A DNA stretch of 64,000 nucleotides from Picochlorum sp. SENEW3 (lineage: Eukaryota), in assembly GCA_034226945.1 (NCBI GenBank), contig CP120458.1, positions 806,001 through 870,000 on the forward strand. The letters run 5' to 3'. Shown here piece by piece: positions 37,201-62,539 of the stretch (position 1 is its first letter; every line of letters begins with the position of its first letter). Made by a program: the position numbers and the translations under genes. The notes beneath the pieces were generated by a model. It worked only from the letters and a program-made list of their open reading frames with translations. It was not told the origin of the DNA and did not search any database.

Positions 37201-37513
37201 CAGAATGTACAATGAAAAAGTTCGAATCGATCAAGAACAAGCTGGAGGAAGCAACGAGCATACGTCCAAGTGTCGCTCTTGTTTGATGCATGCCATTCAG
37301 CTCATGCCGGCAGAGAATGCACACAAGACCTTTTTGTGGTCCTTGGATGGCTATGAGGGCAAAACGTCTAACAGCAATGGTGCCATTCTAGAATCTATGA
37401 TTCAGAACATCATCAATTACCGAGAAGAGATCTTGGCAATCTGGAATGAAGGCCAGGAGGGCCTGGAAGATGATGTGTGGGACATGGTGACAACCTTGAT
37501 CGTTTCTGGTTAA
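34257..37513 (+). CDS. Large (~1040 aa) protein with two HNH endonuclease-like domains; 2 predicted N-terminal introns (~34305-34382, ~34609-34670)
   Basis: ETDHCPIFHMNHSVHCVRLATRSQNMQNR (~35770-35860) and VRVHSILH...VVDHVNRDRNNQQSTTREEN (~36215-36380); NLS KKKKK; PIP-box-like QQTLNSFL; GT-AG sites keep the frame. Confidence 0.7.
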
Positions 37514-37912
37514 ACAAGATCAAGAGGGCATGGGTAGGACTTTTTTTTTAAATCATACTACAATCAGTACTATTCATACAGAATTTTGTAATCATTATAT
37601 CCAAAAGAGTAGTAGGATGAGTAAGAAGGATGAATCCTTTTTCAGTATTGTCCTACCACCGAAAAATAAAAAAGATCCGGATGTGTTCTTTCATTAACAT
37701 CGATTAGAGATGCTTTGTCCTGATTTCTGACAAAATATTAGCCGCCTCGATTTCAGATATGGGGGACATCACCTCTTGGGGATGACCAGGAAACTGTTCA
37801 GACACGGTGGCATCGGATGATGAGCAATCAGGATCTCGCGTGCCTCCTGCCGTAGGCTCAACCAGCTTTTGTCTCTTGTTGTTCGGTAAAACAGAGTCGG
37901 GTGAACCATGAA
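36852..37912 (+). repeat. Direct repeat R1 copy 1 (HNH gene 3' end, intergenic spacer, tail of convergent gene)
   Basis: Near-identical to 39828-40929 apart from a few SNPs and one ~40-bp indel. Confidence 0.95.
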
Positions 37913-39827: not shown

Positions 39828-40489
39828 TGTATCAGCATCAGCCTCTAGGAAAAGACAAGGTAGACGTCACAGATTCTGCAATGGAGCAGCTGAGGCCAAC
39901 AGGCAACTGCATTCGTTTCTACAAATGCATCGCTCGTCCACTGAACAAAACGCCCAACAACGAGCGTACATGGCTCGTGAATGGACATGTTCCCCTGTCA
40001 ATGATACTTCAAGAAAAGTACGAGGAGATTGCCAATCATTATAAGCGCCCCTGTGGACATCTCCAGACCTACTGCGATGCTGCCAAGGAGAAGATAAAAG
40101 AGTGTACTGGTGAGATAAACAGGGTTGGTGGAATCTCTTTGAGCAGATGCCGCGAGGGGATTCGCTCTCAACTGCTCAGAATGTACAATGAAAAAGTTCG
40201 AATCGATCAAGAACAAGCTGGAGGAAGCAACGAGCATATGTCCAAGTGTCGCTCTTGTTTGATGCATGCCATTCAGCTCATGCCGGCAGAGAATGCACAC
40301 AAGACCTTTTTGTGGTCCTTGGATGGCTATGAGGGCAAAACGTCTAACAGCAATGGTGCCATTCTAGAATCTATGATTCAGAACATCATCAATTACCGAG
40401 AAGAGATCTTGGCAATCTGGAATGAAGGCCAGGAGGGCCTGGAAGATGATGTGTGGGACATGGTGACAACCTTGATCGTTTCTGGTTAA
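39828..40489 (+). pseudogene. 5'-truncated duplicate of the HNH gene C-terminus
   Basis: The 202-aa ORF nearly matches the last ~200 aa of the 34257-37513 product; it lacks both HNH domains and any upstream exons. Confidence 0.85.
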
Positions 40490-40929
40490 ACAAGATCAAG
40501 AGGGCATGGGTAGGACTTTTTTTTTAAATCATACTACAATCAGTACTATTCATACAGAATTTTGTAATCATTATATCCAAAAGAGTAGTAGGATGAGTAA
40601 GAAGGATGAATCCTTTTTTAGTGCCACAGTTTGCCTTTTAAAAGGGTGACAATAAGAAATCTTGTTGTTTACCACCGAAAAATAAAAAAAGATCCGGATG
40701 TGTTCTTTCATTAACATCGATTAGAGATGCTTTGTCCTGATTTCTGACAAAATATTAGCCGCCTCGATTTCAGATATGGGGGACATCACCTCTTGGGGAT
40801 GACCAGGAAACTGTTCAGACACGGTGGCATCGGATGATGAGCAATCAGGATCTCGCGTGCCTCCTGCCGTAGGCTCAACCAGCTTTTGTCTCTTGTTGTT
40901 CGGTAAAACAGAGTCGGGTGAACCATGAA
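39828..40929 (+). repeat. Direct repeat R1 copy 2
   Basis: Copy of 36852-37912 (offset 2976-3017). Confidence 0.95.
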
Positions 40930-58198: not shown

Positions 58199-59980
58199 AT
58201 GTCAACGCGAGCGCTGAGCGGCGAGCTCAGCGGGTCGGAAAGGAGTGTTGCAAGCCTCCTGTCACAGCAGGGCTCTCGTGGCAGGGAGATACCTGTCGAA
58301 GAGGCTGGACTATTATCAAGATTGACATCCGAAAATCACGATCTCGAGGACTATCAGGACCATGCATCCCATAATGTATTGGTCAGGTGCCTTCTATGGT
58401 GGTTGAGCTGGGCAATGCCAGGCTTGGGGATGTTCACCAATGCGTATGTTTTGGTCTCAGTCGGCAACCTCATGCCACTTCTCGGCATCATGTATCCAAA
58501 CTGCTATGGAGGACAGCTGCCTCCTGATTGCAATACAGTTGCGGCAGACAGCACACAGACGATAGAGACAGCAGGGGTGATTGGTGGGATGCTCGTGATT
58601 GGTTTCATGGCTGATTGGATGGGGAGGAAATGGGGGAGTCGGTTATGCACCAGTATCATGCTCGTTGGATTGACCCTGGTTTTGTCGGCCAGCGGCACAG
58701 CCTCTCAGTTCCTGATTGTTTACCTCACCGGCTTGTGTGTTTTTGGGGTTGGGGTTGGTGGGGAGTACCCGATGGCATCCTCTTCGGCAGCAGAACGTGC
58801 CGAGGGAACAGCGGAAATACGTCATAAGAGAGGAAGGACTGTTTTACTCGTTTTTTCGCAACAAGGGTGGGGAAACTTTAGTAACGTATTGGTCATCATT
58901 ATTGTCATGGCCATGACTGGAGCCACAGGCTCCACGATATCAAAGCATCAAGCCAATATTGTGTACAGGGTTCAATTTTCAGTCGGAGGCTTCATTTTAT
59001 TGCTGCTGATGGCATACAGAATCAAATACCTGAAGGAGAGCAAGGTATGGCAGCAAGAGCGGAAAGGAGTTGATCGAGAGCTGAATCTGGAAGGTGACGC
59101 CAACAATGCCAGCAAACTGTACTTTGTCATCTTTAGAAAGTTTTGGCCCCGTCTGATCGCAACCTGCTTGAGCTGGACAATGAGTGATCTGATATTCTAT
59201 GGGAATAAGCTCTTCCAGAGCCAATTTATTGAGCTGATCTCTGGGTCAAACTCTACGCTGTTCAAACAAATGCAATGGAACCTCCTCAATGCATTCGTCG
59301 CCTTGATTGGGTACTTCTGCGCAGCGCTTCTGATTGATAACCCATATTATGGGAGGCGAAGAATGCAGTTTGTCGGATTTTTAATGACATTTCTGCTCTT
59401 TCTCATGCAAGCAATATTCTACTCGGATCTAATCAAGGATGGCAACATTTCTGCCTTTCAGGCTCTTTACTTTCTCAGCTCATTCTTCATGCAATTTGGG
59501 GCAAACTGCACAACATTTTTAGTGGCTGCTGAAGTATTCCCAACGGATGTCAGAGCATTTTTTCATGGCGTCAGTGCAGCTTCGGGCAGGACGGGTACAT
59601 TGATTGCCACACAAGTGTTTCCAAGGATCTCATCACAGGGCACATTTTACGTTGCAGCAGGCGCTGGATTCACAGGGGCGGTATTATCCCTTTTATTTTT
59701 GCCAGATACAACGGCGTTGAACATATCGGAAATTGACAGACTGAACCGGTATCTTGTAGCAGGCCGAGTTGAAAAGTATCATGGCGAGGCAGTCAACCCC
59801 AAGTTCCTGTCGCTGTACGAAATTCTGATGGGCTGGCATAGGGCATATGATGCCATCGAGGATTCTGCTCAGAAGAATTTACAGGAGGCGTCCAAACGGC
59901 TGGCAGAACTTGACATGGCACATTCTGATGAGTGCCTGGGGCAGAATTCAGGAGTGCTGAATTCACCCAATAAAAAGTGA
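58199..59980 (+). CDS. Proton/phosphate symporter (MFS, PHO84/PHT1/PTA family)
   Basis: GFMADWMGRK, signature GVGVGGEYP, FYGNKLFQ, QFGANCTTF, EVFPT. Confidence 0.92.
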   Translation: MSTRALSGELSGSERSVASLLSQQGSRGREIPVEEAGLLSRLTSENHDLEDYQDHASHNVLVRCLLWWLSWAMPGLGMFTNAYVLVSVGNLMPLLGIMYPNCYGGQLPPDCNTVAADSTQTIETAGVIGGMLVIGFMADWMGRKWGSRLCTSIMLVGLTLVLSASGTASQFLIVYLTGLCVFGVGVGGEYPMASSSAAERAEGTAEIRHKRGRTVLLVFSQQGWGNFSNVLVIIIVMAMTGATGSTISKHQANIVYRVQFSVGGFILLLLMAYRIKYLKESKVWQQERKGVDRELNLEGDANNASKLYFVIFRKFWPRLIATCLSWTMSDLIFYGNKLFQSQFIELISGSNSTLFKQMQWNLLNAFVALIGYFCAALLIDNPYYGRRRMQFVGFLMTFLLFLMQAIFYSDLIKDGNISAFQALYFLSSFFMQFGANCTTFLVAAEVFPTDVRAFFHGVSAASGRTGTLIATQVFPRISSQGTFYVAAGAGFTGAVLSLLFLPDTTALNISEIDRLNRYLVAGRVEKYHGEAVNPKFLSLYEILMGWHRAYDAIEDSAQKNLQEASKRLAELDMAHSDECLGQNSGVLNSPNKK

Positions 59981-60518
59981 CCCATCGATTATCTTGATCA
60001 CGGAATTCGATGATTTCTTCTGCACCCACTATATGAGAATGGTATAGTGATTTGCCCTGAAAATACTGAATTGCGGTCCGCAGCAGAGCTTTGGCCAGTC
60101 GGGAGGCGGTTGTCAAATCTACCTTGACCCAGCAAAAAATTCGTCGGGGAACCATCAATGCCAGGAAACCACCAGCTATCAGTTGGTGCAGGACACAGCT
60201 TTTTTCCTTCATGTGGTGGCTGGAGACAGCGCTGCTTGTGTTTTGACCAGTTTTTCCTGCCGTCTTGTAATGTCAGAGCAAAGTTGGATCTGCACTGTCC
60301 TGGATCAAGTATTTGGTTCCGAGGATTCCAATAAAAACATGAATCAATGGGTATTTTTATCGTGCAGTACTAGGAATCATTGCTTTAACCATTCTGCCCG
60401 GCACCGGAGACAAAAATTAGGACAACCTCAAGGAATATGGAGTACTTGGGGGCTCTGAGATTGGGAAGCATAGGGCATGTTTGATTGAGAGAGGTAGATT
60501 ATCTGATGGGTTCGGGAT

Positions 60519-61045
60519 TTGACTCATGAAAGCATGAAACAGTCACAGGGCGACGAAAGACGCACATACATAAAGGCGGAGAGCAGGCAACCTCTCAATG
60601 CTCTTTGCCATACAAGTAAAATTTAAATGGAAGGCAAATCGGTGCACGAATGCACTGTGATGGCACGACATATTTGTTTCTTATTTCTTCTTGAGCATGT
60701 TCTAGGACGATCCCCATACAGTGTCTTCCAGAGAAGCGAATTGAACATGTTGATTCCAGCATCCGTGTCCCTGTTCCAGGTTGTTCGAACACATGGGTTG
60801 TTTCTGCAGCCCTTCAACCTGAAAACACATCCATCCTTCATCCCTTCCATGCAGCCCGAACAATTCATTGGTGAAAATGCTTCCTTCAAACCTCCACCTG
60901 ATTCAGCATCTATGCCATTCTCCCACTGATTGTTCATGAATCGATAAGACTCAATTATAGTTTCGGAGTTAGCTCTCTTTGTGGTTGGACGGCCATCCAG
61001 ATTTGGTACGAATTTTCTGTTCCTATGACAATAACACAATACCAT
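60519..61045 (-). mobile_element. Truncated Fanzor/TnpB-like RNA-guided nuclease remnant with a structured 3' tail
   Basis: ORF 60623-61045 has KEAFSPMNCSGC (RuvC-II E + CxxC), CRNNPC, WNRDTDAGINM (RuvC-III D), GDRP; hairpins downstream. Confidence 0.7.
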
Positions 61046-61172
61046 GGTATGTAATATTTAAATTGTGTACGAGACTATGTAGTATAATTTAGAATGCTTT
61101 AAAACCGACAACGACGTTCCCTATACGCATTCCCAACAGCGGCATTGCTCATCTGGATGGGGGTTTTTGAGA

Positions 61173-62105
61173 TCACCTTCCAATAGCCCCAGGAACAGCT
61201 GGCCGACAAACGCTACCCTTATCGAAATCACAAAATGCAAATATCTCACCCCAACAGGAGCATTGCTCATCACTGGAACAGGCATCATCTTGATTGAGAC
61301 ACACATCCTGACATTTGCTATTCTGGCACTTTGTCAGTGTGCCACCACACTCACAGTCTTTATCAGTAGAGCACGAATCGGGGACTACGACACCAGAGGG
61401 GCAAGAAATTTCGGCAGGATTATCCGGGGTAATGACAATCGACAAAAGACTGCTTGTCAGAGCACTCACCAAGCTCATACCCGATTCCTGCATGAGCTTG
61501 CGTCTGCTGCCACCTGCATCAGCAGAGGTGCTATTGACCCACCGAAATCCTTCACTGTTAGACTCAAATTGATCTCCTGTTGTTGTCGTCAGTAGAGCGC
61601 TCTGACCTGGCGTTACAATAGCAGAAGCCACCTGGAACACTGCTGTTTCACCCAGACCATCCCCAGCACCTTGCAATTGCACCTGGACGCTTTTCACTTT
61701 TGATAAATCGCCAAGATTGTTGATTTCATACAAATTCGCTGCATTGGATACTCCCACCACGGATCCAACCGCCAATGGCTGCCCAGTCGACCTGCTCACC
61801 ATGATCCCATTGTCGTTGCCAACCACGCTGTCCAATTTGACCACCATGTAGATGGACCCAGCAAATGCAGCCAGCAGAACTATGAACGCCACGCACAATT
61901 GAATTATGATGGATCGAGTGAGCTTCCGGTCGTCTGCTGCCCTCTTTTCGTCCACTACCATTCCCACCAGGGCTTCAACGGACACGTGTCCATTCGGTCC
62001 ACCTGCAGAGGCTTCCAGCGTCCTGGCAACCTGACGCGGCAGCGTCCTGCATCCCAGCACCTCTGACAAGGCAAGTGTGTGGTCTTGCCCGGCGATATTC
62101 TTCAT
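61173..62105 (-). CDS. Type II membrane/secreted proprotein with RRKL cleavage motif and Cys-rich C-terminus
   Basis: One TM, SRRKLMQ, repeated C-x-x-D-x-x-C modules; another module (DEQCRCW) lies out of frame at 61121-61160. Confidence 0.65.
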   Translation of the reverse strand: MKNIAGQDHTLALSEVLGCRTLPRQVARTLEASAGGPNGHVSVEALVGMVVDEKRAADDRKLTRSIIIQLCVAFIVLLAAFAGSIYMVVKLDSVVGNDNGIMVSRSTGQPLAVGSVVGVSNAANLYEINNLGDLSKVKSVQVQLQGAGDGLGETAVFQVASAIVTPGQSALLTTTTGDQFESNSEGFRWVNSTSADAGGSRRKLMQESGMSLVSALTSSLLSIVITPDNPAEISCPSGVVVPDSCSTDKDCECGGTLTKCQNSKCQDVCLNQDDACSSDEQCSCWGEIFAFCDFDKGSVCRPAVPGAIGR

Positions 62106-62539
62106 ACCTGATAAATTCTATGAAATCGTACACAATGTTTTCAAGATGAACAATAAAATACGGTTCTTGCTTGAACCACTGAAGCTCCAGACACAACGAA
62201 CGCTTTCTCCACCGCTTCCGAGTAGATCGGAACAAGACAATGCAAAAAAATACACTCGTATAAAAGTAAATAATTTTTTTATTTTCCAGTCTTACATGCC
62301 CGGTGGTGACGCATAGTGAAAGATGAGCACAATCCTCAAATTCGGATTGAGGGGCTCGATTCTCTTGAACGAGCCTTTACTCATCCCCACTACCATCACC
62401 TCGTTTAGGCCAAGGTGTTATAATTGATTGATTGCAAACAATTGACTCAAGCCATTCGTTCTCAGTGATGAAAGGGAAGAAGTGGAATCCACACACGACG
62501 AGGCAAGCCTGGAAGTGTGCTTTGGAGGCACTGGGAAGA

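Follow-up and report, generated by a model that had tools for sequence, protein, structure and literature searches.

A probable relic of a Fanzor1-encoding mobile element, deleted twice, in the genome of Picochlorum sp. SENEW3

In the stretch of 64,000 nucleotides from Picochlorum sp. SENEW3 analysed here (contig CP120458.1; hereafter the window), which is gene-dense and has a GC content of ~46%, the segment 61127-60611 of the minus strand most probably represents, with a probability of about 0.9, a dead and twice-deleted copy of a ~3.7-kb mobile element encoding Fanzor1. Fanzor1 is the eukaryotic homologue of TnpB, an RuvC nuclease guided by an omega-RNA. The element-derived DNA spans ~517 bp and lies between two convergent host genes, namely a gene for an MFS transporter, which ends at 59980, and an ORF of 310 aa (61173-62105, ending at 61173), which is on the same strand as the relic and has no Pfam match.

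In the scenario that we favour, a first deletion, here named deletion 2, would predate this insertion, and the resulting derivative devoid of RuvC-II would have multiplied. A further truncation, deletion 1 (~2.9 kb), would then have stripped REC, WED and RuvC-I, so as to retain 93 nt of 5' non-coding sequence, codons ~812-860, and codons ~947 to the end together with the 3' terminus. Such a relic would be unable to make a nuclease, would now be in neutral drift, and may be transcribed, probably in a passive way, downstream of the neighbouring gene. As to the element itself, which would carry no transposase gene of its own, it would have been moved by something acting in trans.

Family and architecture of the copy

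The ORF at the heart of the relic is 140 aa long (60623..61045, minus strand; ORF listing and three-frame translation), within a stop-to-stop open frame of only 144 codons, and it contains all the strings on which the initial annotation had relied, i.e., LKEAFSPMNCSGC, FRLKGCRNNPCVRTTWNRDTDAGINM and LYGDRP. On its own, this ORF gives no Pfam or NCBIfam match even at E 10 and a mere chance match in PDB (hydrogenase small subunit, E 0.5), so that the family assignment rests on its homologues. A word-indexed search of 5.8 billion proteins, confined to the longer ones, retrieved four proteins of 913-1014 aa (P0001-P0004) at E 1.2e-46 to 1.3e-37, about half of the query being aligned at 69-77% identity, which provides the full-length family whose existence had been predicted. 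Besides, when 1.84 billion cluster representatives were searched exhaustively with the ORF by phmmer, 22 matches were obtained at E <= 1e-3, among which P0005 (104 aa), P0008 (985 aa) and seven more distant long proteins (591-851 aa). The P0001 cluster has 25 members, at least six of the 15 listed being 1012 aa long, and sequence of the full-length type also occurs among the contigs of runs that come from close relatives. In viral contigs, 52 pattern matches were obtained, none of them a relative.

The Cas12f1-like TNB domain PF07282 (cut-off of 26.3 bits) scores above its cut-off in 11 of the 22 phmmer matches, below it in six, and is absent from five; in the ~1000-aa group, comprising P0001-P0004 and P0008, the scores range from 14.7 to 23.4 bits (19.5 bits for P0008) and are all under the cut-off. 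Searched against PDB, the profile of P0001-P0004 matches the Guillardia theta Fanzor1 (GtFz1, 9CER) at E 5.1e-5, and that of 11 long relatives (alignment A3) at E 4.1e-14. More precisely, the alignment between the A3 profile and GtFz1 runs from RuvC-I ('kvigiDpGkrn' facing 'KLLGCDPGKRD') through the WNRDxNAAIN helix of RuvC-III, its best stretch joining positions 483-726 of the profile to residues 822-1080 of the 9CER chain, with only weak extra stretches in the REC/WED part (i-Evalue 0.047 and 110). In all 11 long relatives of A3, D753, E944 and D982, which form a canonical D-E-D triad, are invariant, as are the cysteines C951, C954, C969 and C974. In the light of these profile matches, of the triad and of the cysteines, the family of the window ORF is, judged by sequence, Fanzor1, in line with the Fanzor1/TnpB-type remnant that had been proposed.

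When P0001-P0004 are compared with the whole 64 kb by tblastn, two significant segments only are found, both at the relic: P0001 811-860 corresponds to 61024..60875 (80% identity over 50 aa, E 1.7e-19) and P0001 942-1012 to 60889..60677 (75% identity over 71 aa, E 2e-27). None of the four full-length relatives finds any counterpart of residues 1-~810 in the window, which agrees with the stated loss of RuvC-I and of the N-terminal REC/WED part. With no other piece in the 64 kb, a full-length Fanzor frame cannot be rebuilt through introns at this locus. A blast of 60500-61250 against the window itself revealed no further copy within it. The features of the copy, in which L003 refers to a 1.9-kb contig and L001 and L002 to two metagenome contigs that are all described below, are the following:

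60623..61045, minus strand: the 140-aa ORF, an accidental frame whose ATG lies in block A
61035..61127, minus strand: block A, a 5' non-coding piece of the element (blastn to L003 297-389, 83% over 93 nt, E 1.3e-23)
61019..61034, minus strand: deletion 1 junction, with ~2.9 kb lost, i.e., codons 1-~811 (REC, WED, RuvC-I) and the remainder of the 5' region
60875..61024, minus strand: block B, homologous to P0001 811-860, between RuvC-I and RuvC-II (tblastn 80%, E 1.7e-19)
60870..60877, minus strand: deletion 2 junction, with ~85 codons (P0001 ~861/863-946) lost in frame at a T-run
60677..60874, minus strand: coding part of block C, P0001 947-1012, with the TNB zinc finger, RuvC-III and the C-terminal tail (tblastn, and blastn 89-91% to L001/L002)
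60791..60862, minus strand: TNB zinc finger CxxC...CxxxxC, ORF C62, C65, C80 and C85 (columns C951/C954/C969/C974, invariant in alignments A1 and A3)
60746..60778, minus strand: RuvC-III motif WNRDTDAGINM, with ORF D93 as the catalytic Asp (aligned to D982)
60611..60676, minus strand: 3'-terminal part of the element beyond the full-length stop codon (comparison with L001/L002 and loose contig ends)

The two tblastn segments overlap on 'LKEAF', which is identical to P0001 856-860 ('GGLKEAFF') and hence belongs to the first segment, thereby implying an in-frame deletion of ~85 codons. This deletion 2 takes out 'IIVAYGD' as well as the glutamate of the RuvC-II stretch 'VLVDEHRSS'. The RuvC-II end had been annotated as retained; the Glu of 'LKEAFS' is however part of the homologue of P0001 856-860 and not of 942-946, and E944 is deleted. 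Undeleted sequence exists elsewhere, since in one contig of X14 the positions 60870 and 60874 are separated by 262 additional letters; in X9 and X18, loose ends at the junction read ...TCVLVDEHRS. X9, X14, X17 and X18 designate four runs, all of which consist of contigs, stretches uncovered in X17/X18 not being taken as absence, nor summed depth as copy number.

Regarding deletion 1, homology to L003 fades past 61035 (alignment A6), and contigs of other copies depart from the window at 61016/61019 to continue with AYTFLMKKRI or AYPFLIKKWI. Its size of ~2.9 kb would follow from L003, in which the ATG is at position 888, combined with the numbering of P0001. The counterpart of block A in L003 is situated ~500-590 nt upstream of the Fanzor ATG, and loose contig ends are found at 61127 and 61048 in X17/X18. 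The ATG of the 140-aa ORF, at 61045, lies inside this non-coding block, within a perfect 12-nt palindrome (ATACCATGGTAT, 61039-61050) of which 8 nt are absent from L003, so that the start codon is accidental; the palindrome itself may be a footprint of repair or excision. The 140-aa ORF is therefore an accidental open frame across the two deletion junctions of a Fanzor1 pseudogene. P0005, a predicted protein listed in public protein sets, equals the window ORF from M37 (window 60623-60935), and this gene model is probably spurious.

The extent first given to the remnant needs revision on two points. The alignable part of the ORF comprises ~118 aa (P0001 811-860 and 942/947-1012) instead of the ~95 aa held to be recognisable, and the bounds 60519..61045 become 61127-60611, given that 60519-60610 is flank, outside the element-derived DNA, and that the 93-nt 5' block (61035-61127) had been missed. 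The loss amounts to ~85% of the Fanzor gene, including two of the three catalytic residues: the column of D753, the RuvC-I aspartate of the GxDxG strand, is missing from the ORF, and E944 is gone with deletion 2. The RuvC-III end is on the contrary retained, as had been noticed, with ORF D93 aligned to the invariant D982. The only survivors among the features tested are this Asp and the four zinc-finger Cys, whose columns are kept in an ORF for which hmmscan against Pfam reports nothing at E 10. Two columns invariant in 11/11 relatives are altered in the window, N984 being replaced by D and F1006 by C.

Ends of the element and the shared deletion

L001 and L002 carry residues 925/944 to 1012 together with the downstream flank, and are 89-91% identical (blastn) to the window from 60875 to ~60611. 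The three sequences are alike up to ...TTTAAATTTTACTTGTA(T) and unlike beyond, and position 60611 is also where contigs of X14 and X17 diverge from the window, which places the 3' end of the element at ~60611 +/- 2 nt, i.e., ~65-75 nt beyond the stop codon of L002. At the Fanzor stop, an (AAGAAAT)-like repeat of varying copy number is observed (~60680-60700 in the window, ~250-270 in L001 and ~200-225 in L002). Variation of this repeat shifts or removes the stop, the frame remaining open to position 466 in L001 and for 17 more codons in the window.

On the other side, L003 (1909 nt) encodes residues 1-340 of P0001 at 100% identity and includes 887 nt upstream. Although it codes for residues of the algal Fanzor P0001, this contig has been assigned to a Gammaproteobacteria MAG, and is probably a mis-binned eukaryotic contig. 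Adding up L003, the ORF of 3039 nt and the 3' tail gives a full-length element of at least ~3.7 kb, in agreement with several contigs of 3731, 3755 and 3799 nt bearing full-length members. Left of position 297, L003 is identical to a loose end of X18, meaning that both could stem from one locus or that the element reaches further left. A near-palindrome, GTCATCAGCTGATGAGAC, is present at ~275-293 of L003, directly 5' of the start of homology with the window, and this flank is also found in an X18 contig. The full-length element may thus extend further left and include a hairpin.

No transposase ORF was detected in L003 over the 887 nt that precede the ATG, where the largest ORF (112 aa, opposite strand) has no Pfam match, nor downstream in L001/L002, where host-like genes start within ~50-360 nt. 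Local alignment of the left block with the reverse complement of the right end disclosed no terminal inverted repeats, the score being equalled by 261 of 500 shuffles for the window and by 476 of 500 for L003/L002. A direct terminal similarity of 16 nt was discarded, as it was matched in 6/500 shuffles in the window but in 233/500 in the full-length pieces. The idea of a Helitron, raised by an ORF fragment at 3-167 of L003, found no Pfam support.

Deletion 2 is common to at least three loci. In P0006, from a metagenome contig, and in P0054, a 201-aa ORF from a Picochlorum transcriptome, residues from 747 on are present, the RuvC-I motif GIDMGKSN is kept, and the join of 862 to 947 is the deletion 2 junction. 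In P0009/P0043, from Picochlorum sp. BPE23, residues from 661 on are followed by the same junction in a shifted frame. In addition, variants in the length of the T-run at 60873 span the junction in three X14 contigs (+1, +3) and in one of X17. The occurrence of one deletion in copies with different 5' extents suggests that a derivative lacking RuvC-II multiplied and that its copies then decayed separately. As to P0054, this 201-aa form has kept its frame and is transcribed in another strain, contrary to what pure decay of that copy would predict. Starting from deletion 2 at these three loci or more, and from an in-frame, transcribed P0054 with RuvC-I, TNB and RuvC-III, one might speculate that the RuvC-II-less 'mini-Fanzor' is a successful non-autonomous lineage, maintained through an RNA-coding 3' end or as a catalytically dead RNA/DNA-binding stub competing with or regulating the full-length nuclease, the window copy being a further-decayed member. 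This idea is tentative, and we deem it rather unlikely.

Decay, expression and alternative readings

The decay of the locus can be followed in related algae. P0007, a gene model of Picochlorum renovo, has MSNAAVGNAYRE as its first residues, a string also obtained by translating the left flank of the relic in the window (61150-61115), and thereby indicates the same insertion in a related alga. Its frame shifts after CMEG, and block A is absent. Two direct repeats, ATAGGGAAC and ATAGGAAC (61116-61124 and 61019-61026), flank block A in the window. The structure of P0007 would be consistent with a deletion between these 8-9-nt repeats, ATAGG(G)AAC at 61124-61116 and 61026-61019, the protein model reading ...AYRE|QKIRTK, as expected from the loss of the DNA between them. 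In P0053, the frame shifts after DRPR, and in P0041/P0042 after ICRAIT, while contig 25 of X9 (1649 nt, spanning 60134-61791) is short of 4 nt at 60982 and of 5 nt at 60651. Each version of the locus seen in related Picochlorum-like algae therefore has its own frame-breaking indel. The dN/dS between the window and either L001 or L002 reaches 0.72 (10.5 non-synonymous and 3.5 synonymous changes, 55 codons), against 0.07 between L001 and L002 (1 non-synonymous and 3 synonymous changes, 55 codons), these values being based on 14 and 4 substitutions, i.e., small samples that point in the same direction. Taken together, the differing frameshifts, the dN/dS of 0.72 and the changed invariant columns identify the window copy, as far as can be read from its letters, as a pseudogene; with two deletions and a decayed frame, the description as a deleted copy unable to code for the protein holds.

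Regarding expression, P0042, an ORF from an MMETSP transcript, shares at least 90% identity with the ORF of the window. In the oligo-dT RNA-seq run X18, contigs are identical to the window at 60573-60837, 61117-61267 and 61373-61523, bearing in mind that contigs cannot demonstrate a single transcript and that such libraries may contain DNA. This signal could fit read-through of the neighbouring 310-aa gene, located on the same strand and ending at 61173. P0042 and the X18 contigs indicate that RNA libraries contain the relic or a copy nearly identical to it, and some use may be made of the RNA. In known OMEGA systems, as described in PMC11423790, it is the 3' end of the element that encodes the guide RNA. 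In the present case, the last 265 nt of the element fold no better than shuffles (z +1.59), the consensus fold of three copies contains one compensatory pair out of 60, and a search of Rfam up to E 1 found no match in the element, the only one being a chance match to a mycobacterial sRNA outside of it.

These data bear on a first alternative, according to which the relic belongs to a non-autonomous 'mini' OMEGA family that can still be mobilised, its 3' end being copied or supplying omega-RNA in trans to the full-length Fanzor. The presence of deletion 2 at three or more loci, the several contig variants over the element part in X9, X14 and X17, the conservation of both the 5' block and the exact 3' terminus, the seemingly constrained full-length copies (dN/dS of 0.07), the six or more members of 1012 aa among the 15 listed of the 25-member P0001 cluster and the detection of the element part in RNA libraries all go in this direction. 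Nevertheless, the locus is common to a named relative and to a further organism (organism B), which argues for long fixation, and the 3' 265 nt show neither a better fold than shuffles, nor more than 1/60 covarying pairs, nor an Rfam match. Furthermore, terminal inverted repeats are lacking, the window copy may be devoid of a true left end and, to our knowledge, no transposase is known for the ~1000-aa Fanzor family. This alternative consequently appears unlikely, slightly more so than the derivative lineage considered above, and the dead, twice-deleted copy remains the preferred reading.

It could also be proposed that the ORF is a small zinc-finger protein, reduced to TNB, which has been domesticated to serve the host. 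The maintenance of the four Cys and of the RuvC-III helix would be compatible with such a role, as would the recorded 104-aa gene model and the transcript in a relative; however, a different frameshift in each version of the locus, a dN/dS of 0.72 and the alteration of invariant residues make it very improbable. Even less credit can be given to a processed copy, reverse-transcribed from a spliced Fanzor mRNA, in which both deletions would be introns. Such an origin would account for copies that vary in their 5' extent and have a common 3' end, but this end lacks poly(A), block A comes from ~500 nt upstream of the ATG, and no GT..AG was seen, by eye, at the one visible boundary. Moreover, the codons lost through deletion 2 are conserved and catalytic, and the deletion is located at a T-run with length slippage (+1, +3). 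Finally, an unrelated zinc-finger family mimicking the TnpB motif layout, which the initial annotation had named as its refuting case and which the absence of any Pfam, NCBIfam or PDB family for the ORF alone (best PDB chance match at E 0.5) might have favoured, is ruled out for practical purposes by the homology chain that leads from the ORF to the ~1000-aa relatives and from these to both GtFz1 and PF07282, each step of which has a significant E-value.

Relation to known systems and other observations

In bacteria, TnpB-only elements and PATE-like deletion derivatives of the IS200/IS605 type have no transposase of their own, and their nuclease gene decays while the ends of the element are kept. 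The window copy resembles them in the decay of the nuclease gene, in the apparently preserved ends and in the apparent lack of a transposase proper to the element, but differs from them by its eukaryotic host and in that no inverted repeats were found. The relic is an ordinary fossil of a transposon, of a type already known, rather than a working gene. Of little importance when taken alone, it is of modest use in drawing attention to a Fanzor1 subfamily that seems intact and to a deletion derivative that has spread. More precisely, it marks the past activity, in Picochlorum-like green algae, of a ~1000-aa Fanzor1 subfamily with an intact triad and of internally deleted derivatives, and its 5' block, deletion junction and 3' terminus offer anchors for finding full copies.

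Compared to GtFz1, the full-length relatives align at the RuvC-I GxDPGK, the 'IVAYGD'-type strand, the RuvC-II E-x-x-[ST]S, the CxxC...CxxxxC finger and the WNRDxNAAxN helix, of which the window remnant keeps only the last two. Lacking RuvC-I, RuvC-II, REC and WED, it is a piece of a Fanzor and not a Fanzor protein. At the third catalytic position, in RuvC-III, GtFz1 is described as having an Asn (PMC11423790), whereas the ~1000-aa relatives possess the canonical Asp.

Picochlorum is already a recorded Fanzor host, since the Picochlorum rows of Table S2 of Yoon 2023 in NAR (PMC10711439) report Fanzor HMM matches of 731-803 aa in Picochlorum sp. BPE23, namely the four proteins KAI8106033.1, KAI8102625.1, KAI8107949.1 and KAI8112075.1. 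These proteins come from the same genus as the named relatives of the remnant, and their N-terminal motifs (KCTLxPFC..., HVHHVM...) resemble, by eye, those of the 591-851-aa members of A3. As compared outside their C-termini, they form a shorter subfamily than the ~1000-aa P0001 one, which is, along with its deletion derivatives, absent from these four rows. The term 'Picochlorum' does not occur in nine supplementary table files of Saito 2023 (PMC10432273), one scanned PDF being left out, nor in the two of Jiang 2023 (PMC10530073), and a full-text search for Fanzor and Picochlorum gave, among the matches listed, no title or abstract with both terms. In another alga, Auxenochlorella, an uncharacterised Fanzor-encoding element is described as the most abundant repeat, and Fanzors as sporadic in green algae (PMC12633428). 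By that description, on which the kinship stands, it is likewise a Fanzor carrier without a recognised transposase in a small trebouxiophyte genome.

Two further observations concern the rest of the window. Upstream of the relic, the summed contig depth rises several-fold at 61722-61923 and 62227-62500 in X9, X14 and X17, and contigs of these three sets depart from the window at 61755 and 61874 with identical loose-end sequences. A ~120-nt segment within the 310-aa ORF, like the region lying upstream of that ORF, thus seems to occur in repeated form or to have counterparts at other loci. Lastly, identical weak chance matches (tblastn/blastn) were obtained at 37451-37567 and 40427-40543, ~3 kb apart, which reveals a duplicated segment in the window.
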